This document shows, piece after piece, positions 1-29,837 of a stretch of DNA of 64,000 nucleotides (its first letter is position 1; each line of letters begins with the position of its first letter). This stretch comes from a virus. Under the pieces are notes generated by a model. It had not been told where the DNA came from, made no database searches, and saw only the letters and a program-made list of their open reading frames with translations. The stretch lies in the IMG/VR virus record IMGVR_UViG_3300034095_000254. One strand, written 5' to 3'. A program made the position numbers and the translations under genes.

Positions 1-346
1 TACCCAGTATCAATTTATCAATAATAAATGGAGTAAATATCTTTTCAGATAGGTAACCAAGCATCCAGTTATAGTAAACATCTTCCATGGCACGACCATT
101 GTTTCTCATACGAGGAAGAATATTGTGATTCTTAATCTTCATAAAAGTATCAATGATGTCTTGGTCTATGTTACCTTCATATGGAACAGATAACTGCTGA
201 TTGATTTTAGTAAAGATATTATTCAAACGAGAATTCTGTTGTTGAAGCACAGACCAGTTTGGTTCTTTAATATCTTTTGCAGAGAGATACTTTTGAAACT
301 CATCCTTGCGAGTGAATCCCATTGCCTTACGATATTCTTTACTCAT
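1..346 (-). CDS. Partial CDS (runs off the window); unknown protein, possibly a restriction-endonuclease-like nuclease
   Basis: Not in the ORF track. ATG at 346 overlaps the TGA of the GNAT gene (ATGA). Open frame MSKEYRKAMGFTRKDEFQKYLSAKDI...LPRMRNNGRAMEDVYYNWMLGYLSEKIF to the window edge. The nuclease resemblance is from memory only. Confidence 0.55.
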   Translation of the reverse strand, partial: MSKEYRKAMGFTRKDEFQKYLSAKDIKEPNWSVLQQQNSRLNNIFTKINQQLSVPYEGNIDQDIIDTFMKIKNHNILPRMRNNGRAMEDVYYNWMLGYLSEKIFTPFIIDKLILG

Positions 347-984
347 ACTAAAAACTCTTCTAACGAGGGTTGTTCAAGTAGTGCGTCTCTTAACCATGCC
401 TTACCAACTGCATTAATTGCTGCTTGGCTCTTTGCTCTTTTCTTATCACCCCACTTGTATGCTTCCAAACCCTCAGCACGGAATTGATCTCTGGCTTTGT
501 ATGGTGGTAGTGCTTGTAGTGGATTCACGATGGCAAAGTCACGATAAGCAATCTGCTCTGCTCTAGTTGGAAACAGTGGTTGGTCTGAACGAAGTGAACC
601 TGTTGGATCAACTGCCCACCAAATCAAACCATTCTTGTAGTGCCATGTAACTGAAGAAGGAGTGCAAGACATCTTTAGTCGAGTCATCTTTCTTTCTTTA
701 ACTGCATAATCAATCCATGCATCCCAACACTTTGATGCATAACCCTTACCTTCATTTCCTTCAAGTGTAACAATCTCGTAGAGATTACTGTAACCATCTC
801 GATTAAATGTGGCAAAGATTAAACAAACAACATCACCATTCACTTCAAGAGCCATTGGTGGTGCTTTGTCATAGTTATGAAAGCGATACCATAATGAATG
901 TGCAGCCGATAAGAATTTTGTATTCTTACCAGCTGGACTAGTTTTAATTAACTCTTCAACTCTCGTTGAATTAACAAAGTTCAT
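343..984 (-). CDS. GNAT-family acetyltransferase with putative C-terminal sliding-clamp-binding peptide
   Basis: GNAT motif A-like IVTLEGNEGKGYAS. Likely start MNFVNS at 984, overlapping the upstream stop. Ends PSLEEFLV*. Confidence 0.7.
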   Translation of the reverse strand: MNFVNSTRVEELIKTSPAGKNTKFLSAAHSLWYRFHNYDKAPPMALEVNGDVVCLIFATFNRDGYSNLYEIVTLEGNEGKGYASKCWDAWIDYAVKERKMTRLKMSCTPSSVTWHYKNGLIWWAVDPTGSLRSDQPLFPTRAEQIAYRDFAIVNPLQALPPYKARDQFRAEGLEAYKWGDKKRAKSQAAINAVGKAWLRDALLEQPSLEEFLV

Positions 985-1663
985 ATTGTAAGTCCACCGC
1001 ATCCTCAATAACTTCTTTTTCAATTGTCATTGCAAGTTGGTCATCAAATGTAATGTAATGGTTCATCAAAGTGTTAATAGGGAATCCTGGAACTTCTGCT
1101 CGTTTTGGTACATCAGCAGTAGAAGTAATTATACACCCATTTGATATAGAAGTCAAGTATAATGGTCGTTTACCATTGCGATAGAATCTAATAACTTTAT
1201 CAACATGCAACTCTATAACGGCAAGACTAGAATCTTTCCAACGAATCAATGGGCTGATGCAATCTTCTGCTGTGTGTAAGATTAGTTCTGTATCGTTTTT
1301 AGTTTCGCAATCATAACCATATAACTCTTTCCACTTCTCAGGTAACTCTTGAGTGATAACACCATTGTGGACTACGGAAAGATTCTCATTGGCAATTGGT
1401 TGATTGAATTCTAAGTCACTGGTGCTGTAACGACAGTGACCAATCATATAAAGACTTCCATCTTCATTGACATAACTTGGAAAGTTAAATGGAAATTCAT
1501 CGGCAGGAACTGGTCGCTTCTCAGTGATAATCTTTCCATGTTTAACATAGGAGATTCCAGTGGCATGCATTCCTCGAATCTTGGACTCAAGGAACACACG
1601 ATGAAGCATTAAGAAATCCTCGGCACGAGGTTCTTTAATAATTGCGCCAATGACTGAACACAT
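971..1663 (-). CDS. Stand-alone class II (Ntn) glutamine amidotransferase domain protein
   Basis: N-terminal Met-Cys nucleophile, RGxxATG, GHCRYST, HNGVI and NDTE motifs. No synthetase domain (230 aa). Confidence 0.85.
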   Translation of the reverse strand: MCSVIGAIIKEPRAEDFLMLHRVFLESKIRGMHATGISYVKHGKIITEKRPVPADEFPFNFPSYVNEDGSLYMIGHCRYSTSDLEFNQPIANENLSVVHNGVITQELPEKWKELYGYDCETKNDTELILHTAEDCISPLIRWKDSSLAVIELHVDKVIRFYRNGKRPLYLTSISNGCIITSTADVPKRAEVPGFPINTLMNHYITFDDQLAMTIEKEVIEDAVDLQYELC

Positions 1664-3024
1664 TAAAAGAATCCTTCAAGTGAGTTTGCCTTTTGTGACT
1701 CTGGATGATACTTCAACAGAGTTTCTTTACCAAGTTTTGATTCAAGGTATTCATACCACTCTTCAGACTCCCACATTGCAGAACTCACACCATTCCAAAG
1801 ATGTCGTTGTGAACCATCTTCATACTTTTGGTCTGGATGTTCTTTGTTAAGTCTTCGTTGTTCAACAAATTCATAACGACAATCTTCATACTCTTTAGAT
1901 CCCAACTCAGCCATCTTCTCACGGAAGTAAACAACCAATGAGATTCTCTCTGCTTCTTCGTCCATCAATTCAATTTGAGTATTGCCATGCATCACTTCAT
2001 GATTGTTAATGAGTAGCAAATCTCCAGGTCTTGGATTGACAGCAACACGATACTCTGGTGCTACAAGATAGCATCCTTTGTAGTTACCATTATTACTCAA
2101 TGTCAATAGATTGGATAGACCTTCAGTGAAGTCACCAGCATCGAAGTGACATGCAGTTCTGAAAGATTTATTTACAGTGACAGTAGTAAATGGAGTTCCA
2201 GGAACTAAGAAAGCAGGATCCAGTTTCTTTGCAGCTTCCATCTGATTGTTATATCGCCATGGCAACAAGTCTTTGAAACCTTGTGCAAGTTGCTGAAGGA
2301 ATGGATATGCCATGGCAAACTTTGCTGGTTCACGAGCAGTGTAAGATGTCGCACGACCATAAGGAATGCGAGGATAACGATCGAACCATCCAGCAATACC
2401 AGACATTACACCATTGGCATAGGTAGTTGCGCAGACATACGCTTTCTCTACTCGTCTTGCCTCAATGACCATTTCAGATGCATCTAGTTTACGAACTTTC
2501 TCCACCCACTCGTTGAACACAAATCCATCTTTCTTGACTGCTTGAATACCCCAAACATTATTTCGTGTGGATGGTTTGTCAGTCTTACCTTCGTGCTTGG
2601 CTTTAATAACATCAATTGGATCTCCATCCAACGATGCTTTAGGATCCAAGAAGTATTCAATAATTTCTGATTCGTATTCAGTGACCCATTCACGATTACC
2701 CAACTTCTCTGCTCTTGGACCTGCAGCCATACCTCTGTTCTGAGTTTCAGTTGCTGCTTCACGGAGACCAATATACGCTTGGTCTTGTTGTTCTTTACTG
2801 AAGTAGTTCTTACGGAACTTCAAAACAATTCGTCTTTCGTCTGCGCCTGTGTCGCATGATGAACATTCTTGGTCGCAATCTGCTTGTGTGGCTAGATCGC
2901 AATTGGCTGGCATGTAAACATCACAGTCCTCTTCAATGAGAAAATCATAATGTGACTCATCAGGGAATTGCCCCAACATATGAGTCATATCAAGTTTCTC
3001 TTTTGCTACAATTACTTTTACCAT
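1663..3024 (-). CDS. TET/JBP-family 2OG-Fe(II) dioxygenase (5-methylpyrimidine oxygenase)
   Basis: TVTVNKSFRTACHFDAGD (HxD), GDLLLINNHEVMHGNT (distal His) and RISLVVYFREKM (2OG-binding Arg) match the TET/JBP core. Ends NSLEGFF*. Confidence 0.85.
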   Translation of the reverse strand: MVKVIVAKEKLDMTHMLGQFPDESHYDFLIEEDCDVYMPANCDLATQADCDQECSSCDTGADERRIVLKFRKNYFSKEQQDQAYIGLREAATETQNRGMAAGPRAEKLGNREWVTEYESEIIEYFLDPKASLDGDPIDVIKAKHEGKTDKPSTRNNVWGIQAVKKDGFVFNEWVEKVRKLDASEMVIEARRVEKAYVCATTYANGVMSGIAGWFDRYPRIPYGRATSYTAREPAKFAMAYPFLQQLAQGFKDLLPWRYNNQMEAAKKLDPAFLVPGTPFTTVTVNKSFRTACHFDAGDFTEGLSNLLTLSNNGNYKGCYLVAPEYRVAVNPRPGDLLLINNHEVMHGNTQIELMDEEAERISLVVYFREKMAELGSKEYEDCRYEFVEQRRLNKEHPDQKYEDGSQRHLWNGVSSAMWESEEWYEYLESKLGKETLLKYHPESQKANSLEGFF

Positions 3025-3033
3025 AACTTTCTC

Positions 3034-4428
3034 CTAAAACTTAAATCCGTCAAAAGATTTTTCTGCTTTTTGTCTGCGACCAAAATTACTTTTATCAAAC
3101 ATGGGTTCATCGTCATCACTCTTTCCAGAGTCACTCAGCGTTTGTGCCGATGCCTCTACATCATAGAGTTTCATCTTCGCTCGATCAACTCCAATAACAA
3201 ATCTCTTATAGAATCCTGGATCGTTATAGCGATTCTTCAACTGTTTAACAATAATCTGATTCAATCCTTCCAACTCCTCATTGCTGACCAAAGCAAACAT
3301 AAAGTCAGCTGTCGCTGGCAATCCAAAAGATTCAGAGGTATCTTCAAGTCCTGGATCCGAGTTTGTGAATCCAGAACGAGTTGTTTGAGTGGCTGAGACA
3401 ATGGGAACATTATACTCAACTGCCAATCCTCTTAGTTCTTCTGCAATGCTCTTAATATATGTATAAGAGTTAATACTTCCACCTTGCTTCATTCGTTGAC
3501 TCGCACAAATATTGAGATAGTCAATGAAGATAATATCAGGTTTAAATTCTCGTTTCAACTTTAGTTCTTCCAGCAGTGCACGGAAATGACCAGAGTGAGC
3601 ACCAGCAGTTGGGTATTCTTTGACAATTAGTTTACCTTTAGTCTTAGCTGTAATCTTAGCAATACGACTTTCGTAGATATCCCTGTCAATAACTTTTAGT
3701 TCATCCATGGTTAGGTTAAGAAGATTCGCATCAATTCTTTCAGCGATTCGTTCTTCTGCCATTTCCATAGTTATGTATAATACATTTTTTCCTTGGGTTA
3801 GACAACCAGCACCCACATGGCACATAAACAAAGACTTACCAACACCAGTGCCAGCAAGACAAATGTTAAGCGTTTTCTTTGATAGTCCACCCTTAGTGAT
3901 TTTATTGAACATGTCAAGGTCGAATGCAACCTTCTCTTCCACCCTATGATAAAAATCATACCTCTCGTTGTGGTCATCAAGATAGTCATGCCCAATATGA
4001 TTATCAAATGAAACGGCAAGAGCATCAGAAAGAATAGATGGTATAGCATCTTTCGTTTGGTGCTTATCGTTTCCGTCAATGATTCTGATTGCCGAGAGAA
4101 CTCCATTATAAACTGCCCTATCTTTACAAAACTTTTCAGTATGTTCTAACATCCAGTCTTCATTGACTGGTTCCTGACTCAATGTGCCGATAAAGTCGCC
4201 AAGTTCAGACAACTCTTTATCATTGAGATCTTTCCTATTACTAATTTCAATCTGTAGGATTTCTTTGGATGCTGGCTTGTTATACTTCGTAAAGAAAGAA
4301 ACAATCTCGTCTGCCAAGATTACTTCTTTGCGCTCTGCAAAATATTCTTTCTTGATAAATGGAATTACTTTACGACAATACTTCTCATCAAATATCAGAT
4401 TGCTCAGAATCTTTTGTTCTATTCGCAT
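3034..4428 (-). CDS. 41: Replicative DnaB-like helicase gp41
   Basis: Walker A AGTGVGKS, YITMEMAEE, IFIDYLN, SATQTTRSG, KQLKNRY. Confidence 0.97.
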   Translation of the reverse strand: MRIEQKILSNLIFDEKYCRKVIPFIKKEYFAERKEVILADEIVSFFTKYNKPASKEILQIEISNRKDLNDKELSELGDFIGTLSQEPVNEDWMLEHTEKFCKDRAVYNGVLSAIRIIDGNDKHQTKDAIPSILSDALAVSFDNHIGHDYLDDHNERYDFYHRVEEKVAFDLDMFNKITKGGLSKKTLNICLAGTGVGKSLFMCHVGAGCLTQGKNVLYITMEMAEERIAERIDANLLNLTMDELKVIDRDIYESRIAKITAKTKGKLIVKEYPTAGAHSGHFRALLEELKLKREFKPDIIFIDYLNICASQRMKQGGSINSYTYIKSIAEELRGLAVEYNVPIVSATQTTRSGFTNSDPGLEDTSESFGLPATADFMFALVSNEELEGLNQIIVKQLKNRYNDPGFYKRFVIGVDRAKMKLYDVEASAQTLSDSGKSDDDEPMFDKSNFGRRQKAEKSFDGFKF

Positions 4429-4723
4429 CAATTTCTGTTCCGCCTGTATATGTTAAATTATTTTCTTCCACACCTTGATGCAGCAATTCTTGTAGTATAT
4501 CACCTATGTATGCTTCAAAAGGTTTGAAGTCTGTCATACCTTTATCAGCATTCTCAAGTATCTCATACTCAAACTTTAAATGCAAGGAGTCATTCTTTTC
4601 ATCTGGATCGAATGACACCTTTCCATATGTATAGATTATACCCTCAAACGCACCTTCAGTCAACTTAATTGCTTGAAGTCCACTGTGTTTGTGTTCAAGA
4701 ACTTGGTATCTAAAATTACTCAT
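4388..4723 (-). CDS. gp40-like head vertex assembly chaperone (by synteny)
   Basis: 111-aa ORF between uvsX and gp41, the T4 position of gp40. Confidence 0.55.
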   Translation of the reverse strand: MSNFRYQVLEHKHSGLQAIKLTEGAFEGIIYTYGKVSFDPDEKNDSLHLKFEYEILENADKGMTDFKPFEAYIGDILQELLHQGVEENNLTYTGGTEIDANRTKDSEQSDI

Positions 4724-5789
4724 CGAACTCTAACTCTTCCAATGCTTTGTCTAAGTCATCTTCTTGCATCATCTGTCCACCTTGACCGATTGAATACTTA
4801 CTCTTTACAAAATCATAGAATGATTTGCTTGTAAGAATTGATAACCAGAAGTCTTTGTTATCAGTTTCTTTGATACGATATTTCTTGGCTTCTACTTCAC
4901 CAGTCTCTGGATCGCACTTGGAATACCATCCGTTACTTGGTTTGACCACATGCTTGGATTCAAGAGCAAGGTCAAGTAGACCAGACCACTTACTGAGCCC
5001 ACCATCAAAAGATACAGAAACAGGAATTTTAGATTTCTCTTTAACATAACGACTCTTCTCTACATTGATAATAAAATTGTAACCTACAATCTCAGTGCCT
5101 TCTTTTTCTTGCTGACGACCAAGAATGTATACATTATCTGCTGAATACATTGCACCAGTACCACCACCAACGATTGCTTTCGGGAACATTCCGATCTCCA
5201 TATATGTATGGTTCACTACAACGAGTGGAATATCTTTCAAGTTCAAGTGTGGAGTTACCATACGGAACAATGACTTCATCTGTTTTGCTCTTGACATATC
5301 TGCAACAGACTTACCTTCCATGGCATCTTCAACTTCTTTCTTAGAAGCCAGATTACCAATGGAGTCAATGACAATAATCAAATGATCACCACGCTCTACA
5401 TTGGACAACTGTTGCATAATATCGAACTTCAATTGTTCCACATCAGTGAGTGGAGTATGAACAACTCGCTTTGTATCAATACCGAATGTATCGAAGTAAG
5501 ACTGCGGAGTACCGAACTCTGAATCATAGAACAACAACGCTGCATCTTCATACTTGTCCATGTAGGACTTAGCCATTAGCAATGAGAATGCTGTCTTGAA
5601 GTGTTTGCTTGGACCAGCCCACATTGTAATTCCTGGAGTAAGTCCACCATCAAGACGACCAGACAAAGCCACATTGATGATTGGAACAGAAGTAGGAATC
5701 ATATCCTTCTTCTTAAAGAACTTTGATTCTGATAGAATCGCAGAGTCTTTGATGGTACTATTCTTTTTAATCTTATCTAAAATGCTCAT
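4716..5789 (-). CDS. uvsX: UvsX RecA-like recombinase
   Basis: AGPSKHFKT, FYDSEFG, DSIGNLASKKE, VGGGTG. Confidence 0.97.
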   Translation of the reverse strand: MSILDKIKKNSTIKDSAILSESKFFKKKDMIPTSVPIINVALSGRLDGGLTPGITMWAGPSKHFKTAFSLLMAKSYMDKYEDAALLFYDSEFGTPQSYFDTFGIDTKRVVHTPLTDVEQLKFDIMQQLSNVERGDHLIIVIDSIGNLASKKEVEDAMEGKSVADMSRAKQMKSLFRMVTPHLNLKDIPLVVVNHTYMEIGMFPKAIVGGGTGAMYSADNVYILGRQQEKEGTEIVGYNFIINVEKSRYVKEKSKIPVSVSFDGGLSKWSGLLDLALESKHVVKPSNGWYSKCDPETGEVEAKKYRIKETDNKDFWLSILTSKSFYDFVKSKYSIGQGGQMMQEDDLDKALEELEFDE

Positions 5790-5790
5790 A

Positions 5791-6042
5791 TTAACCTTTC
5801 AGGAATTCTAACAGTTTTTCTTCGGTGACCATACCCACTTGTCGTCTGATTTCTTTTCCAGTGTCATCAACTAAAACCATAGTTGGAACAGAACGAACTT
5901 TATATTCTTGAGCCATCATCATCTCATTATCAATATCATATTCTTCAATTGGAATATCAATCTTATCTTTTGCGCCATTGATGACCATTGAGAGTCCTTT
6001 GCATGGACCACACCAATCGGCATAAAATTTTAACAGCTTCAT
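5791..6042 (-). CDS. Thioredoxin
   Basis: WCGPC active site, SVPT cis-Pro motif, AGGAG RBS. Confidence 0.93.
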   Translation of the reverse strand: MKLLKFYADWCGPCKGLSMVINGAKDKIDIPIEEYDIDNEMMMAQEYKVRSVPTMVLVDDTGKEIRRQVGMVTEEKLLEFLKG

Positions 6043-6053
6043 TTATATCTCCT

Positions 6054-6082
6054 ATTATACAGTAACTTTTGTTGCAAGGCAA
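6054..6082 (-). promoter_or_regulatory. Sigma70-like promoter upstream of thioredoxin/uvsX/gp41
   Basis: Minus strand TTGCCT-N17-TATAAT. Confidence 0.7.
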
Positions 6083-6634
6083 CTATGGATTGTTCTTGGA
6101 ATGTGGAACATCAAACACAAATGTAATTCTAACAACATCACCAACATTCTTAGTTCCATGTAGTAGTTTATTGTTGAACCAAATCAAATCACCAGCATCA
6201 ACTTTTACAGATTCTCCACCAACAGTGTAAACATATGAACCTTGTATTGCAAGATGGTATCTGTCTCTTGTAAGATAATAATCTCCGATGTCGATATGTT
6301 GCCCAACTTCTCCACCAACTGGCAACGAAAGGAATCCGCATCTATCAAATTTCTTAAAGTTTCTTTTTAAGAATCCTACAATCTCTGTGTGTCTGCTATA
6401 CGCTGGTGTTTCTACGGATGATTGACTATCACCCACATATTGATTTAGGTCTTTTACAGTACCAATTTTTAATTGAAGGACACCTGCTTGTACTGCAGGG
6501 AATCCATACTCATTAACTAAATCGTGCACACCTTCAATATCTTTTTGAGCACCCCAGTCCTCTGGGTATTGTTGCAACTGTTTCAGTATCTTAGAAACAT
6601 TGATACCTTTTTTGATAACTCTAATGTTAGCCAA
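6083..6634 (-). CDS. Asp/Asn beta-hydroxylase-like 2OG-Fe(II)/cupin oxygenase
   Basis: GQHID (HxD), RYHLAI, WFNNKLLHGTKN, RITFVFD. Confidence 0.8.
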   Translation of the reverse strand: MANIRVIKKGINVSKILKQLQQYPEDWGAQKDIEGVHDLVNEYGFPAVQAGVLQLKIGTVKDLNQYVGDSQSSVETPAYSRHTEIVGFLKRNFKKFDRCGFLSLPVGGEVGQHIDIGDYYLTRDRYHLAIQGSYVYTVGGESVKVDAGDLIWFNNKLLHGTKNVGDVVRITFVFDVPHSKNNP

Positions 6635-9122
6635 AGAAATCCTCCAATGAACTTTCTTCTTGAGTCTTCCAACCTAGTGGTTCAATAACAATCTGTAATG
6701 CATCGAGGAATACCTTCTCAAACATCTTGTCATAATCTATGTATGATTCTAATTTAAACTCTTTTGGCAGAACCTGTGGGAATGCAATCACATCTTCCTG
6801 TAGAGGATTCGGAGTGCGCACATACACAAACTTAATCTTATCACCATCACGGATTGGTTGATACTTCTTATCGATGCCGAATCGCTTGCAGTGGTGATTG
6901 AACAACAACGCACCACGAACATGAATTGGTGTACCCTTTGTATAAATTGGAGAGCCAGTGTACTGCTTCAATCCATTTATACCTCTCGGGAAAGCAATCT
7001 CTTGAATCGGTAATTTGTCAAACTCTTTTCTAAACTCCATAACATATGTATGTAGATCTTTTTCACCCCCAGCGAGGATAACTTGAAGTGAATCACGCAA
7101 CTTTGTACGAATAACCGCAGGTGTAGACGACTTGACCATCTCCAGACCCATAACTTTGATCTTAGGTTTCGCAAACTGAACTCCTTCTGAGTTGTGAACA
7201 TTAATGATATATCTTTTCTTGGCAGTCCAGATGGCTTTGTCCGCAAGAACTTCTCGCTTCATGACCATCTTCTGACTGTATGCATTCATGTAATCTGATA
7301 GTTCGGTGTAACCTTGATCAATGAATGGTTGAAATACTTCTTCGCAAATCTTATCCATGTACTTGATCTTCTGCTCAGTGTTCTTACCTTCGCAAACTTT
7401 CTCGATGAGATGTTCAAGTGTAAGATAGATTGAGTCAGTGTCAATGGCAATGACAAAGTCTTTACCTTCTGTCTTGAGAGTTTTGTTGAGGAATGCATTC
7501 AACTTGTTTGCCATCCAACGAATGGATAGTTGACCAGAAGTCGTAATACCCTCTGCCATTCTAATATCAAAGTAACGGAAGTACTGATTGCCCATCGCAC
7601 CATAAGCAGAGTTAAGAGCAATCTTCATAGCCATCTGCAGGTTGTTAAGACGAGAGATATCTTTTAGCAGGTGAACCTTTGTCTTATCGTTTTGGTATTC
7701 CTGTTCAATCTTTAACATCTGTTTCTTAAACTTGGAACGATTGATATACATCTCTTCCATCAACTCAGGCATGAACCCTTTGATGTCTTTGCGATATGTC
7801 CAACCATTTGCAGTCATGGCAAGGTCTCTTCGTTTAAGATAGTCAGTATCAATCTCTTTGTTGAGTAACTTGTCAACAGTGACTGACAACTTCTCGCTCG
7901 TTAGAGTTTCTGGACTGATGTTGTATTGCATGATCAAGTGAGGATACAAACTGTTCAAGTCAAAGGAAACAACCCACTTGTGCATACCAATCATTGGATC
8001 TTTTACATAAGCACCTTCGAACTGGGAATCTTTTCCAGAGTAAGTCTTAGCTGGAATGACAATACCTTTCTTACGAAGGTGATTGTAGATGATAGTGTCC
8101 CACATACGAACCTGAGAGTAAACATCTTCAGGATTAATCTTAGCATTGTATGCCATGGTTAGGTGCAACTCAAGCAGACGCATCTTGTCTTCGAGTTTGT
8201 CAACTAACTCCACATCGTGAATGTTATATTCAACAAAGTCTGTCCAGTAATTTGTGTAGAAGTCTTTAAAGTCAACTCCAGGATTCTCTTTCTTGGCATC
8301 ATCTAGTTCTTCACCAGCAATGTAATCCAAACGATATGACTCTTGCTTTGTATATGTATATTTCTTGTAAAGTTCAAGATAGTCTAACTGAGAGATACCC
8401 ATGATGTCATAGTGAATCTGTTCATTACCTTTAATGAAAGTCTTTCGTTGATTGACATAACCCCATGGACTAATCTTGTTGGCAAATGTATCACCCAACT
8501 CTCGCTGAATGCGATGAATCAAGTAAACATTATCAAAGAAGTCTGTGTTCCAACCAGTGATGACATCTGGGTAGTTACCTTGCCACCAAATCATAAACTC
8601 TTTGAGCATGTGTTGTTCGTCACGACAATTGACCATCGTAACATCAGAACGAGGAGACTTATACTCACCATACTTTGTTTGAGCAAAGGTAACAACCTTC
8701 TTTGATTGAAGATCCTTGATAGTGATTAGAAGAACTTCTTCGTTGGCAGACTTGATATCTGGGAATCCATTCTCAGTTTCAGTCTCAATGTCAATTGTGA
8801 ATACTTTAATCTGTTCCATATCCCAGTTGACATCGTCTTCGTAAGTGTCACTGATATATTGATATGCGTAGTTGGTGTTACCGTAAACTGGGAATCCTTC
8901 AACACCTTCGTATCGTTTTAGGAAGTCACGAGTCTCACGGATACCTCCAGGTTTTATTTCATCAACGAATGTATCTTCAAGAGTCTTCCATTTTGATGGA
9001 ACCTTAGAAGTGACAAAAAGCGTAGGATAGAAATCTACCTTACGCTGATATGCCCTGCCGTTTTGATATCCCCTAACGAGGATCTTGTCGCCCACTGGGT
9101 GGACGCTGGTATAAAATTCCAT
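6627..9122 (-). CDS. 43: Family B DNA polymerase gp43
   Basis: DIETE exonuclease I motif, SFDLNSLYP, KIALNSAYG, DTDS, KKRY. C-terminal clamp-binding peptide SSLEDFFG. Confidence 0.98.
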   Translation of the reverse strand: MEFYTSVHPVGDKILVRGYQNGRAYQRKVDFYPTLFVTSKVPSKWKTLEDTFVDEIKPGGIRETRDFLKRYEGVEGFPVYGNTNYAYQYISDTYEDDVNWDMEQIKVFTIDIETETENGFPDIKSANEEVLLITIKDLQSKKVVTFAQTKYGEYKSPRSDVTMVNCRDEQHMLKEFMIWWQGNYPDVITGWNTDFFDNVYLIHRIQRELGDTFANKISPWGYVNQRKTFIKGNEQIHYDIMGISQLDYLELYKKYTYTKQESYRLDYIAGEELDDAKKENPGVDFKDFYTNYWTDFVEYNIHDVELVDKLEDKMRLLELHLTMAYNAKINPEDVYSQVRMWDTIIYNHLRKKGIVIPAKTYSGKDSQFEGAYVKDPMIGMHKWVVSFDLNSLYPHLIMQYNISPETLTSEKLSVTVDKLLNKEIDTDYLKRRDLAMTANGWTYRKDIKGFMPELMEEMYINRSKFKKQMLKIEQEYQNDKTKVHLLKDISRLNNLQMAMKIALNSAYGAMGNQYFRYFDIRMAEGITTSGQLSIRWMANKLNAFLNKTLKTEGKDFVIAIDTDSIYLTLEHLIEKVCEGKNTEQKIKYMDKICEEVFQPFIDQGYTELSDYMNAYSQKMVMKREVLADKAIWTAKKRYIINVHNSEGVQFAKPKIKVMGLEMVKSSTPAVIRTKLRDSLQVILAGGEKDLHTYVMEFRKEFDKLPIQEIAFPRGINGLKQYTGSPIYTKGTPIHVRGALLFNHHCKRFGIDKKYQPIRDGDKIKFVYVRTPNPLQEDVIAFPQVLPKEFKLESYIDYDKMFEKVFLDALQIVIEPLGWKTQEESSLEDFFG

Positions 9123-15570: not shown

Positions 15571-15642
15571 TTACTTATTCATTACATACATTGTAACTTC
15601 AAAGCCAAATCTCATTTCTGTTGCTGATGGTTTTGTCCACAT
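15571..15642 (-). CDS. pqqA: PQQ precursor peptide PqqA (23 aa)
   Basis: Not in track. AGGAG RBS then MWTKPSATEMRFGFEVTMYVMNK*, with the canonical W-x-K-P...GFEVTxY (E-x3-Y) signature. Confidence 0.95.
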   Translation of the reverse strand: MWTKPSATEMRFGFEVTMYVMNK

Positions 15643-15926: not shown

Positions 15927-16342
15927 TTTGCTTTTTTTCCTATGTTATATTTGGGAACAAGTTCCCACTCATTTTTCTCTTTAAAAGAGACTACTTTAAT
16001 TTGAGACAAAGATGCCTTATTGTCTGCTTGCGTATTATTTAGAATCTTTAATAGATCCCAATCTTGTAGCAAACCAGCAATAGCATTTCTGCGCTCGATA
16101 TCGCCACTCGTGATATTAGATTCTTTACCATCAAGAGCAAACAATTCTTTGAAATGCACTATGAAGTATCTACCTTGCTTATGTAAAATGTGGCAAGATT
16201 GATACAACTTGTTTTCTTTTCTGGAAGCGATCCCGATGCGGGTAAGTGTCTCACGAACCTTTAGAAAGTTATCTGGTTCTGGCAGTATCACTTCAAGCAT
16301 GGACTCAGCTGTCCAGTCGTAATAAATCAATTCGACAGTCAT
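15923..16342 (-). CDS. regA: Translational repressor RegA
   Basis: FLKVRETLTRIGIAS, LYQSCHILHKQGRYFIVHFKELFALDG. Confidence 0.97.
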   Translation of the reverse strand: MTVELIYYDWTAESMLEVILPEPDNFLKVRETLTRIGIASRKENKLYQSCHILHKQGRYFIVHFKELFALDGKESNITSGDIERRNAIAGLLQDWDLLKILNNTQADNKASLSQIKVVSFKEKNEWELVPKYNIGKKAK

Positions 16343-16722
16343 TATTTTCCACCTTTGTATAATTTTTCTTTTATCATAACTAAATGATCTTCCGTCAATA
16401 TACTTAGGGCATCAACTGCCTTAGAATCGGAATAACCAAAGTATTCTTTAACTAATCGAAGAGACTCTGTTTCGGCATCTTTTTTGTGCCATTTGGAGAA
16501 TCTTTTCTTCTTAGAGATACTATTTAGTAAAAAAGAAAACTGCCAGTCCACTGGAATAGATGAGTTGCGATTCATCTCGTTTGCATATAGGACTGTATCT
16601 GGAAAATAACCCAAACCCCTGTTAATGATAAAAGGAACATAGTCCTTCTTAGCCATCGGGTCTTCTGCTAAGAGATCTTTCTTTGTGGAATTGATTGCAT
16701 TAATAAAGTCAAATGGTGTCAT
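16342..16722 (-). CDS. 62: Clamp loader small subunit gp62
   Basis: YVPFIINRGL, ANEMN, KKKRFSKW, ends KGGK; synteny. Confidence 0.92.
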   Translation of the reverse strand: MTPFDFINAINSTKKDLLAEDPMAKKDYVPFIINRGLGYFPDTVLYANEMNRNSSIPVDWQFSFLLNSISKKKRFSKWHKKDAETESLRLVKEYFGYSDSKAVDALSILTEDHLVMIKEKLYKGGK

Positions 16723-17048
16723 GATATAAATCCAACTTCTTTCAGTGTAGACTCGTGACAAGCAAATCGTTTTCCAGGAAATCTTTCTACAAGGACTTTC
16801 TCTACATCTTCCTTTGAAGATCCCTGTGCCATAAATTGTTTAGTATCTTTGTCGTAAACATATAACATATCATTATGTTTTTCGATAATGATATGGATCT
16901 GTTCTTCTTCTTGTTCTTCAAATTGTTGTATGGTCTTAAAGTGTTTTTCAATTTGCTTCTTGGCATGTTTTTCTCTAGCGTTCCAGCCAGATACTGCACC
17001 CATTATCCATACAACAAATGTGAATACTACTAGTAGTATAAGTTCCAT
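16719..17048 (-). CDS. Hypothetical membrane-anchored protein inserted between gp44 and gp62
   Basis: N-terminal hydrophobic helix; GAGG RBS. Confidence 0.7.
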   Translation of the reverse strand: MELILLVVFTFVVWIMGAVSGWNAREKHAKKQIEKHFKTIQQFEEQEEEQIHIIIEKHNDMLYVYDKDTKQFMAQGSSKEDVEKVLVERFPGKRFACHESTLKEVGFIS

Positions 17049-17055
17049 GTTAGCC

Positions 17056-18006
17056 TCATTTGAATTTACACTGAGCCATAATCTCAGTGAGTGCTGCCAT
17101 TATATTTAGTTCATGGTCAGCTACAAATGCTGCTTTATATTGATAGTCTGCAAGAATAAGAACTAATTGTGGAACACTGTTTGGTTCAATCGTAGTTGCA
17201 GCACTATCGTATAGTTCACGGAATAGTGATGTGGTATCTGAGTCAGAGTTTTTCGAAACCCACTTACGGACTTCTGTAAAGTCTTTCTCTTTAAGTAGTT
17301 TAATTAAACCCTTAAATGATTCCTCAGACATATTGACAAGGATGCCAGAATCAATCTTACCAGAAACAGAGTATCGTTGGAGTTCATTTAGAATCCTACG
17401 GTAATCTGGAAAATGTTTAGTGATTAGTTCGGCAACAACTTTAGGATCGAATTCAATCTGCTCTTGTTTGAGGATTGACACTGCTCGCTTAAAGAAGGTT
17501 GCAGCGATCTCCTGCTTGTCTTTGGAATCAATCTTAAACTCCACTACAGCACAACGACTGTGGATAGGTTCAATGATACGATTCTTAAAGTTACAAGTTA
17601 GAATGAATCGGCAGTTGTTGGCAAACTCTTCAATGAATCCACGAAGTGCTGGCTGAGTTGAATTAGCATTAAGGTAATCCGCTTCATCGAGGATGACAAC
17701 TTTCTTGGCATCAGTCAATGATATAGTGGAAGCGAATCCCTTAATCTTAGTGCGCAGAGTATCAATACCCGATTCTTCGGATCCGTTGATCATCATAAAC
17801 TCTGCACCAATTTCATTACATAGTGCTTTGGCAATTGTAGTTTTACCCACACCAGCAGAACCAGTGAACAAGAAGTTAGGTAGTTCACCTTGTTCTACAT
17901 ACTGGCGGAAAGTCTCTTTCAATGCCTGTGGTAAAACACAATCATCAATCTTCTGTGGACGATACTTTTCTACCCACAAAAACATTTCATCACGACTATC
18001 AATCAT
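17056..18006 (-). CDS. 44: Clamp loader large subunit gp44
   Basis: WVEKYRP, GSAGVGKTT, ILDEAD, SRC. Confidence 0.97.
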   Translation of the reverse strand: MIDSRDEMFLWVEKYRPQKIDDCVLPQALKETFRQYVEQGELPNFLFTGSAGVGKTTIAKALCNEIGAEFMMINGSEESGIDTLRTKIKGFASTISLTDAKKVVILDEADYLNANSTQPALRGFIEEFANNCRFILTCNFKNRIIEPIHSRCAVVEFKIDSKDKQEIAATFFKRAVSILKQEQIEFDPKVVAELITKHFPDYRRILNELQRYSVSGKIDSGILVNMSEESFKGLIKLLKEKDFTEVRKWVSKNSDSDTTSLFRELYDSAATTIEPNSVPQLVLILADYQYKAAFVADHELNIMAALTEIMAQCKFK

Positions 18007-18058: not shown

Positions 18059-18718
18059 TTAAAACTCAAATGTAGAATCTGCTTCTACTGCGACATAGTA
18101 AACTAAGTCAGTGTTTGGTGCTTTGAAACGAGAAATCTTCTTGCTGGAGATTGACACTTGGTAATCACCTGGAAGCATCTTTAAGTTTTCTACTTTCAGA
18201 TTAACTTTAAATACTTTATCAGTGTCACCAATTGCTTCACTGTAAGAGTTACCAGTGGCATTCTTCTTATCACCAACGACAGCAGTAACCTTACTGCCAT
18301 CACCAACGATAGATACATCGGCTGCACGAAGGACTGAAGAAGTTTTCTTAATCATATCCAACATCGTTGCAGACATGTTAAAGTTAATCTCTGCATCAGG
18401 GAAGGTAATTGCTTTCTGTGGTGCTACCAAAACAGATGGATCTGCAGCAAAGAACTTGATGTTCATGTTACCTTGTTTGATTGAGACATACTTGTCTTGG
18501 AATTCCAATTCAGGATCGTCAAAGAGAGACATCGCACCCAGAAACTCATTCAAGTCATAGATGGCAAAGTCAGGGAATGCCTCAGTAGTTGTTGCGTCAG
18601 CCATCACATTCTTCTGTGCACTGATAGTTGCTAGTTTGTTACCTTGCTTCAAGAGAAGATTGCTGTTGATGCCAGCAAAGTTCTTGATTAGGTTTACGGT
18701 TTCTTTACTTAATTTCAT
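18059..18718 (-). CDS. 45: Sliding clamp gp45
   Basis: MKLSKETVNLIKNFAGIN, FAIYDLNEFL, ENLKMLPGDY, YYVAVE. Confidence 0.96.
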   Translation of the reverse strand: MKLSKETVNLIKNFAGINSNLLLKQGNKLATISAQKNVMADATTTEAFPDFAIYDLNEFLGAMSLFDDPELEFQDKYVSIKQGNMNIKFFAADPSVLVAPQKAITFPDAEINFNMSATMLDMIKKTSSVLRAADVSIVGDGSKVTAVVGDKKNATGNSYSEAIGDTDKVFKVNLKVENLKMLPGDYQVSISSKKISRFKAPNTDLVYYVAVEADSTFEF

Positions 18719-28130: not shown

Positions 28131-29314
28131 TAGATAAATCCTACCTTTCTATTTGAACTAGATTTTTTAGTATTATCAGATTGTTGATTGAACACCTCTG
28201 CAATAGAGTATGCATCTTTGATGTCTGGCAGGGTAACATTCAATTTCTTAGCCAACTTCTTAGCATCACCATGTGACAGTGTATCGAATGTAAGGATATC
28301 AAAACATCTTCCTGGACGAACTAATGCTGAGTCAATATCACGGATGCTTGGAAGATTGGTGGAGAAGATCATCTTCTTACCTTTGGTTGTAACAAGACCA
28401 TCACCAACATTCAAGAAACGATGCATCATTGTATTACCATCGCTACGAGACTTTAAGAATGCATCGCTGTCTTCAAGAACCATAACTTCTGCGTCATCCT
28501 CGATGAACTTTGCGAAGAAACCATCTTTCTCAAGGATGCCAGCATCGTAGGTTACGATTGCGGAACAGTTGCGATGTGCAAGCAGACCACGAATGAATGT
28601 AGTCTTGCCAGTTCCTGGAGGTCCAATTAGTAGGAGAATGTTGGCAGAAGATTCCATGTAACGATCGTAGTAATCATTAAGGGATTCGCCATTAAGGAAT
28701 GGATACATCTCTTCAGTTGGGAGACGATCACGATTCAATGGAACATTGACGGAGTTACCATCAGCACCATAGATCCATTCGATATAAGATGTAACAACAT
28801 CAAAGTTAGACTCAACAATCTCAACCATGTCTTCTGCATATTCAGCATCACCGAATGCTCGAACAGTGGTTGAGTTAGAGTTTACATCAAACTTAATGAA
28901 GTTGTTAGTATTTTCCTCAACGATAAATCCAGTTGAAGAATTACTTTGAACGAACAGGCAATCGCTGTATTGTTCTTCTGCCCACTTTGACCATCGTTGA
29001 CGATCGCAAAGGACAGTTGTTTCTCGTTGTACTGTTGATAGGTTTGCATCAACACGACGCTTCATAATTTCGACTGTGATTAAGTCTTCGAAATCAGAAA
29101 CACCCAAAAATATTTTCTTATCATCCATAATTTTACTCAGATCAAATTGGTTATCAAAAGCATCCCATGTATATTTTCTAAGAAGTTTCTTACTTTGTTT
29201 TCTTCTTTTTCGTTTTGTGCTTCTTGCTAGTGCAGGAAAAGACCTTGTTACAATATTATGTCCTGCTTGCAATTCACGAATCCACTTGTGTAAGTCCTGT
29301 GTCATTTTCATCAT
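28130..29314 (-). CDS. AAA+ ATPase (BCS1-like) with basic N-terminal extension
   Basis: GPPGTGKT, VLEDSD, FLNVGDG, STN, DSALVRPGR. Confidence 0.88.
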   Translation of the reverse strand: MMKMTQDLHKWIRELQAGHNIVTRSFPALARSTKRKRRKQSKKLLRKYTWDAFDNQFDLSKIMDDKKIFLGVSDFEDLITVEIMKRRVDANLSTVQRETTVLCDRQRWSKWAEEQYSDCLFVQSNSSTGFIVEENTNNFIKFDVNSNSTTVRAFGDAEYAEDMVEIVESNFDVVTSYIEWIYGADGNSVNVPLNRDRLPTEEMYPFLNGESLNDYYDRYMESSANILLLIGPPGTGKTTFIRGLLAHRNCSAIVTYDAGILEKDGFFAKFIEDDAEVMVLEDSDAFLKSRSDGNTMMHRFLNVGDGLVTTKGKKMIFSTNLPSIRDIDSALVRPGRCFDILTFDTLSHGDAKKLAKKLNVTLPDIKDAYSIAEVFNQQSDNTKKSSSNRKVGFI

Positions 29315-29837
29315 CCAAAAAACTATTCAATGTATTATCAACTTTTCGTTTTGCTGCCTTTTCTTTTTTGCGATCCATCCATGAATCATCAAAGGTGCTA
29401 TTGTTCTGAACGAAATCCATGTAGGCATTATGATAGTCTTTATCATCACCCTCTTGAACTTCAAACATCTCAAATGGCATATCTTGAATTAACTTACCTT
29501 TAATATAACTTTGTTTCTTTTCCTTGGCAATCCTTCGCAGAAATGCATAGTAGATAATCTGCGTAAAATATGCAAATGGATTATTAGACTTGGTGGGATC
29601 GAAGTTATCAATATACTGTAAACAGTTTTCAATTCCATCGGAAATCATTTCCTCACGGTATGAATAATTGATAAAGTTGGGTTTATAGGAAAGATGGTTT
29701 GCTATCTTTAGAATGCATTCACCAATATAGTTGCTAACGACTGGTTTGGGTAAACCTTTTTCTTCAGCTTCTTTTTTCTTGGCTCGCATCTCTACTATAG
29801 CTGCAAGAAAGTCAGCGTTATTTACATAATGTGCCAT
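29274..29837 (-). CDS. 55: Late-transcription sigma factor gp55
   Basis: HYVNNADFL, YIGECILKIA, EMISDGIENC, NPFAYFTQI. Confidence 0.96.
   Translation of the reverse strand: MAHYVNNADFLAAIVEMRAKKKEAEEKGLPKPVVSNYIGECILKIANHLSYKPNFINYSYREEMISDGIENCLQYIDNFDPTKSNNPFAYFTQIIYYAFLRRIAKEKKQSYIKGKLIQDMPFEMFEVQEGDDKDYHNAYMDFVQNNSTFDDSWMDRKKEKAAKRKVDNTLNSFLDDENDTGLTQVDS

Follow-up and report, generated by a model that had tools for sequence, protein, structure and literature searches.

We analysed a stretch of 64,000 nucleotides from the virus record IMGVR_UViG_3300034095_000254 (hereafter the window), which is part of a T4-like phage with every gene on the minus strand. Downstream of the gp41 helicase gene, the window encodes a TET/JBP dioxygenase, a glutamine amidotransferase and a GNAT-fold acetyltransferase (GNAT), and the dioxygenase and the GNAT end in the same type of peptide as the phage's DNA polymerase gp43. 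From sequence comparison and a structure model, we consider it quite probable that these tails are motifs binding the sliding clamp gp45, which would recruit successive DNA-acting enzymes to clamp-bearing DNA. The features concerned are as follows.

343-984, minus strand: GNAT-fold acetyltransferase, 213 aa, assigned from fold and gene order; the true start is the ATG at 984
346-369, minus strand: predicted clamp-binding-type peptide at the GNAT C-terminus (homologue conservation, co-model with gp45)
971-1663, minus strand: stand-alone class II glutamine amidotransferase with an N-terminal Cys and no tail (PF13522, E 4e-10)
1663-3024, minus strand: TET/JBP (5mYOX) dioxygenase, long T4-type form, 453 aa (PF12851, E 1e-27)
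1666-1686, minus strand: predicted clamp-binding-type peptide at the dioxygenase C-terminus (conservation, tail of low model confidence)
6627-9122, minus strand: gp43 DNA polymerase, tail at 6630-6653
18059-18718, minus strand: gp45 sliding clamp, the proposed receptor (similar to T4/RB69 clamps, E 4e-28)
29274-29837, minus strand: gp55 late sigma factor (phrog_234)

The tails are specific and match the polymerase

A first-pass annotation had pointed out that gp43 ends in SSLEDFFG, the dioxygenase in NSLEGFF and the GNAT in PSLEEFLV, and that gp55 carries NTLNSFL near its end. All four are present as described, on the minus strand; the gp55 copy (29316-29336) lies 13 residues before the protein end and is followed by an acidic end. 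The pattern [ST]L[DE]xF[FL] forms the C-terminal end of 3 of the 74 open reading frames (ORFs) in the window, for which shuffles expect 0.003, and it occurs at none of the 18,523 internal positions. The looser pattern [ST]L[DEN]xF[FL] has four matches in about 19,000 residues, each time at most 20 residues from a C-terminus, and its four carriers are gp43, gp55, the dioxygenase and the GNAT. Because the pattern had been picked after the tails were seen, the test was redone using nothing but the polymerase tail of the genome in question. In two complete relatives, the dioxygenase and the GNAT then ranked second and third of 229 and of 250 ORFs. Among 239 protein families from about 90 loci, the strict tail was found only in the dioxygenase (80/86), the GNAT (65/65), gp43 (31/32) and two TAGT glycosyltransferases. 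Glycosyltransferases of the latter type, encoded near the dioxygenase, carry the tail in four distant T4-like phages (L081:5057-5920; L082:12238-13164; L168:10797-11645; L169:2089-2898).

No such tail was found in gp33, the ligase, the amidotransferase or the kinase of this lineage, the amidotransferase having been followed through 73 relatives, nor was a C-terminal motif found in T4 alpha-glucosyltransferase, beta-glucosyltransferase or Dam. The parallel drawn with T4 gp33 does not extend to gp33 of this lineage. A C-terminal motif, essential in T4, is missing from the gp33 proteins of G002, G003, Cr30 and C48C1 and partial in that of DLP6 (L213-L217); late activation in the phages without a gp33 tail may differ from that in T4.

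Overall, the tail is kept in 120 of 120 dioxygenase homologues and 119 of 120 GNAT homologues, and the lone tail-less GNAT looks like the product of a one-base frameshift in the same DNA. In the dioxygenase tail, L and F are 99-100% conserved, compared with 34-64% for the preceding linker. In the GNAT, the linker before the tail differs in length among orthologues.

Tail presence largely follows gp45 across orthologues

As far as the orthologue sequences tell, the presence of a tail tracks that of a cognate gp45, with exceptions such as the dioxygenase of Cr30. Among distant dioxygenases, 20 of the 32 with the long T4-type C-terminal region carry the tail, as against 4 of the 118 others. The dioxygenases of the cultured T4-like phages DLP6 and C48C1 are tailed and those of the non-T4 phages S-CBWM1, HTVC112P and P12024L are tail-less; among the phages searched, gp45 was found in the tailed group only. 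GNAT orthologues at 48-69% identity that adjoin gp41, gp43, gp45 or gp46 have the tail. By contrast, small phages have orthologues at 45-50% identity within the same cassette of five genes; there, ParB comes first and the dioxygenase, the GNAT and the transferase all end at the core. Four tail-bearing contigs contain gp45, which was not found in four ParB-type contigs (24-76% complete). ParB (PF02195) was present in G005 and G012, and none was found in three complete or near-complete T4-like relatives (G002, G003 and G010). A natural amidotransferase-GNAT fusion, P0391 (L218:720-2057; one contig), which follows a tail-less transferase beside an integrase, nests among tailed GNATs on the tree and has lost the tail. 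The first-pass annotation had regarded tail-less orthologues with intact catalytic domains as the observation that would speak against clamp binding. Such orthologues do exist; the tail-less GNATs, however, sit in non-T4 contexts, which speaks for clamp binding, and among long dioxygenases a minority lack the tail.

The amino acid:DNA transferase (AADT) of close relatives ends in a variant, G-L-E-x-F, of which G, L and F are invariant in 40 of 40 distinct sequences. The same variant is found in gp55 of DLP6 and Cr30, and it is similar to G-L-D in the motif of T4 ligase.

Polymerase-matched tails in cultured phages

Cultured Ackermannviridae-type phages have a polymerase tail of another sequence, and there, too, the modification enzymes end like the polymerase. 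The end common to the polymerase, the transferase and both 5-hydroxymethyldeoxyuridine (5-hmdU) kinases is [NS]-L-[LM]-x-[LM]-[LMF] in Kuttervirus Det7 and K-x-[KR]-[KR]-L-W in Vibrio phage D528. Each enzyme tail scores best against its own polymerase, the enzymes fill three of the top five places in the proteome, and both phages encode gp45. In Cr30, the polymerase and a TAGT glycosyltransferase share the end D-L-S-x-L-F. A search for a shared polymerase-enzyme tail in PaMx11, which has no gp45, found none. Three very different tails, each common to the polymerase and to modification enzymes, are hard to explain unless the proteins share a receptor. The enzymes are located as follows.

Det7 transferase and both 5-hmdU kinases: L248:2120-3025, L248:3782-5017 and L251:6004-7224
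D528 transferase and both 5-hmdU kinases: L249:3157-3945, L249:3950-5161 and L249:6010-7194

The Det7 and D528 tails are both unlike the T4 motif, and the ViI homologues of these enzymes have been characterised biochemically, which makes phages of this (ViI-like) type the easiest place to test the clamp idea. In both phages, a small Cys-containing protein without a Pfam family has a polymerase-type tail and is encoded just upstream of DNA ligase (Det7 L254:8862-9071; D528 L261:17591-17890). The ligase itself does not end in such a tail, and the small protein is a possible clamp adaptor.

Structure models

In the models of the GNAT and the dioxygenase, the predicted local distance difference test score (pLDDT) drops to 62 and 46, respectively, in the last block, compared with about 90-95 in the cores. 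According to these models, the tails lie on a flexible linker outside the catalytic fold. They appear dispensable for the fold, because orthologues end before the tail. We utilized ESMFold2 to model the gp45 trimer with the last 35 residues of the GNAT, together with three controls. The GNAT tail scored 0.64 and the best control 0.02; the score mark is reached by 58 of 80 solved pairs and 2 of 110 mismatched ones, figures that apply here only approximately. Contact agreement between runs was at least 90%, and the pLDDT of the partner was at least 58. GNAT residues 205-214 made the only contact with gp45, on one protomer, at gp45 residues 32-39, 101-107, 193-195 and 208-214. In the solved structures 6DRT and 1B8H, one peptide per protomer binds on the outer sheet of the clamp.

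Composition and probable chemistry of the cassette

In relatives, the gene order is dioxygenase, amidotransferase, GNAT, AADT (PF18724), a small gene and a P-loop kinase (PF18751). The window stops inside a nuclease-like insert, and loci that are 92-93% identical in DNA over 1-3100 run on into the transferase; the transferase and kinase of this cassette are thus expected past the window edge. The dioxygenase has a TET2/NgTET1-like fold by structure comparison, with the iron triad H293-x-D295, H346 and the 2-oxoglutarate-binding R360 intact. Neither a C5-methyltransferase nor a gene of the thymidylate synthase family was found in the two complete relatives. Because these genes are absent and the kinase and AADT are present, the sequences suggest thymine already incorporated into DNA as the most likely substrate and 5-hydroxymethyluracil as the product.

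The GNAT fold contains motif A (G-x-G-x-A) and is supported by Foldseek matches to GNATs (AlphaFold2 pLDDT 93.5) and by a value of 0.99 to GNAT clusters in ESM Atlas; Pfam alone was below threshold (E 0.003). Its nearest folds are SpeG polyamine and protein N-acetyltransferases. No relatives of the GNAT were found in cultured phages (tblastn), GTDB genomes or PDB sequences. A GNAT that acetylates aminomethyluracil in DNA is known, namely PaMx11 gp48, and thymidine hypermodification cassettes with AADT, kinase and GNAT have been published (PMC8989533, PMC13229309). Orthology with gp48 was not detected (hhalign probability 0.1, E 0.51, shallow profiles). In T4-like and in unrelated small phages alike, the GNAT keeps its place between the amidotransferase and AADT. 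Because of this fixed cassette, the amidotransferase fusion and the PaMx11 precedent, we think it likely by analogy that the GNAT acetylates aminated thymine in DNA.

Several additional genes accompany the cassette. The insert at the window edge (1-346, minus strand) is the 5' part of an optional nuclease-like gene between the GNAT and AADT. This gene of 230-240 aa occupies the gap in a minority of loci (window 1-346; L002:2976-3704); it has no Pfam family, a cluster named restriction endonuclease is among its ESM Atlas neighbours (0.96), and it may be a nuclease that is mobile or sensitive to modification. A few close relatives carry an inserted B12-dependent radical SAM gene behind the transferase (L061:6071-7594; L062; L077), which suggests that end products vary within the clade. 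Most close relatives have a conserved gene without a family on either side of the kinase (about 137 and 240 aa; L002:4716-5159, 5782-6510). Elsewhere in the window, clamp-loader genes follow gp45 (16342-18006), and a 23-aa ORF at 15571-15642 (minus strand) resembles the PqqA precursor (E-x3-Y) in translation, which would point to a methylotroph host.

Proposed clamp binding and its alternatives

The initial proposal that both enzymes ride gp45 gained support from the conservation of the motif, its absence without gp45, the matching to the polymerase and the GNAT model; the binding itself is predicted. In the mechanism that we propose, the last residues of the dioxygenase, the GNAT and the transferase of close relatives would dock in the hydrophobic pocket of a gp45 protomer, on clamps loaded on replicated DNA. 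The dioxygenase would convert thymine of finished DNA to 5-hydroxymethyluracil, the kinase would phosphorylate it, AADT would add a nitrogen group that the amidotransferase supplies or trims, and the GNAT would acetylate the resulting amine, as the chemistry of M6/PaMx11 suggests. The tether would raise local concentration and processivity and so bias modification to newly made phage DNA. One copy of full-length T4 ligase occludes the clamp ring, and therefore the clamp clients probably exchange. A restriction of the modification to phage DNA is plausible, though we lean slightly against it. Fork coupling does not follow from the tails: the enzymes could act at the fork or on clamps left behind, since clamps remain loaded once the fork has moved on, and related enzymes are active in the absence of a cognate clamp.

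Several observations weigh against recruitment by gp45. The link between tails and gp45 comes from sequence and a model, and the success of the model may reflect memory of the solved complexes 1B8H and 6DRT. Independent events are few: the GNAT tree shows two changes and the dioxygenase tree, which is weakly resolved, about six. The long-form dioxygenases of Cr30, which has gp45, and of two others lack the tail, as do some T4-type transferases and, always, the kinase in this lineage. The incompleteness of the small-phage ParB contigs limits the gp45 negative. In addition, a heterologous transferase, that of M6, was able to modify CBA120 DNA in trans, and T4 glucosylation depends more on expression than on contact with the clamp.

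Even if the tails bind gp45, the GNAT could acetylate a protein, such as a replisome or transcription factor, or a small molecule, in the way Eco1 acetylates cohesin. A clamp motif does not set the substrate, given that gp55 has one and that Eco1, likewise a GNAT bound to a clamp, acts on a protein; the tail is therefore not the independent support for a DNA substrate that had been suggested, and the fixed cassette is stronger evidence. The nearest folds of the GNAT and its lack of detectable similarity to gp48 also fit a non-DNA substrate. Nevertheless, its position in the cassettes of both phage types, its one fusion to the amidotransferase and the known GNAT acting on aminomethyluracil in DNA make this alternative improbable. 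We judge it less probable still that the tail is a docking peptide for some other phage protein (a scaffold, the clamp loader or a pathway enzyme) or a structural end of each fold. The D528 tail is indeed unlike any known gp45 motif. However, the tail is common to gp43 and gp55, whose sole known joint partner is gp45, and it occurs on unrelated folds, with variable linker length, low pLDDT and orthologues that fold without it.

Finally, the dioxygenase and GNAT tails both extend over the start codon of the following gene and include GAAGGA or GAAGAG, as they would if the Shine-Dalgarno site and the U-rich spacer of that coupled gene had spelled out E-G/E-F-F. We rejected this origin of the motif, which we take to have hardly any chance of being correct: only 3 of 90 and 2 of 92 coupled gene ends in the complete relatives carry the motif, the tail codons vary synonymously (serine from both codon families, mixed leucine codons), and the gp43 tail is not coupled to a next gene. 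At most, the overlap may account for which residue occupies the variable position.

A further-reaching version of clamp recruitment, which we regard as rather unlikely, is that gp45 replaces ParB, the loaded clamp being both the required helper of the dioxygenase on double-stranded DNA and the carrier of successive enzymes, so that only DNA handled by the replisome would be hypermodified. The idea arises because tails and ParB are mutually exclusive. ParB activates clade C1 dioxygenases on double-stranded DNA, and some ParB-less C1 members are inactive in E. coli assays (PMC13229309). If true, it would explain these inactive enzymes, and the polymerase-matched tail would be a general address label for replisome-linked modification enzymes.

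Comparison with known systems

Each component has precedents: the clamp motif, modifying enzymes bound to a clamp, and the cassette were all known before. The new elements are the contrast among GNAT orthologues, the exclusion of ParB across several loci, the gp45 model and, in cultured phages, the tails matched to the polymerase. The literature search, which covered few subscription journals, found no paper describing clamp motifs on the dioxygenase, the GNAT or the transferase. Clamp-binding motifs are carried by gp43, gp55 and gp33 of T4/RB69 and by T4 DNA ligase (PDB 1B8H, 6DRT; PMC6212786, PMC7892883). The tails resemble them as short L-x-x-F-[FL]-type peptides on a flexible end, common to the polymerase and the late sigma factor and predicted to contact one protomer. 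They differ in sitting on base-modifying enzymes, in a spacing that is that of this phage's polymerase and not of T4 LDFLF, and in the lack of such a motif on gp33 and ligase of this lineage; clamp binding here is, moreover, predicted.

Like the enzymes here, T4 alpha-glucosyltransferase is a post-replicative base-modifying enzyme linked to gp45, with which it co-purifies. The interaction is attributed to Sommer 2004 in PMC6024577 and was confirmed in vitro (PMC13216743); a preprint of the T4 glucosyltransferase study had reported no gp45 binding, which the published version reverses for the alpha enzyme. Unlike the enzymes here, it has no C-terminal motif, bound with a C-terminal His tag, is one enzyme and not several steps of a pathway, and acts where cytosine is pre-marked by hydroxymethyl precursors. 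When a dioxygenase starts from ordinary thymine, nothing marks its substrate beforehand, and how it is aimed at the phage's own DNA needs explaining; a clamp tether is a concrete, testable answer.

The ParB-dependent T-dioxygenase clusters (clade C1, PMC13229309; PMC8989533) share the dioxygenase, amidotransferase, transferase and P-loop kinase, with GNAT orthologues 45-50% identical. By contrast, the complete relatives here have no ParB, a long dioxygenase and clamp-type tails. Those two papers mention neither gp45 nor such tails. For the authors of PMC13229309, why hypermodification should be post-replicative is a mystery, and they offer no explanation for the inactive ParB-less C1 enzymes. 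In practice, C-termini matching the polymerase tail would serve as an annotation rule that picks modification enzymes out of 220-270 ORFs.

Further parallels are DNMT1-PCNA and Eco1-PCNA (PMC9690074), where a clamp peptide brings a modifying enzyme to replicated DNA, although these involve eukaryotic PIP boxes and unrelated enzymes, and Eco1 acts on a protein. If our interpretation is correct, the list of gp45 clients would grow from replication and transcription to multi-step base chemistry, in parallel to DNMT1 on PCNA.

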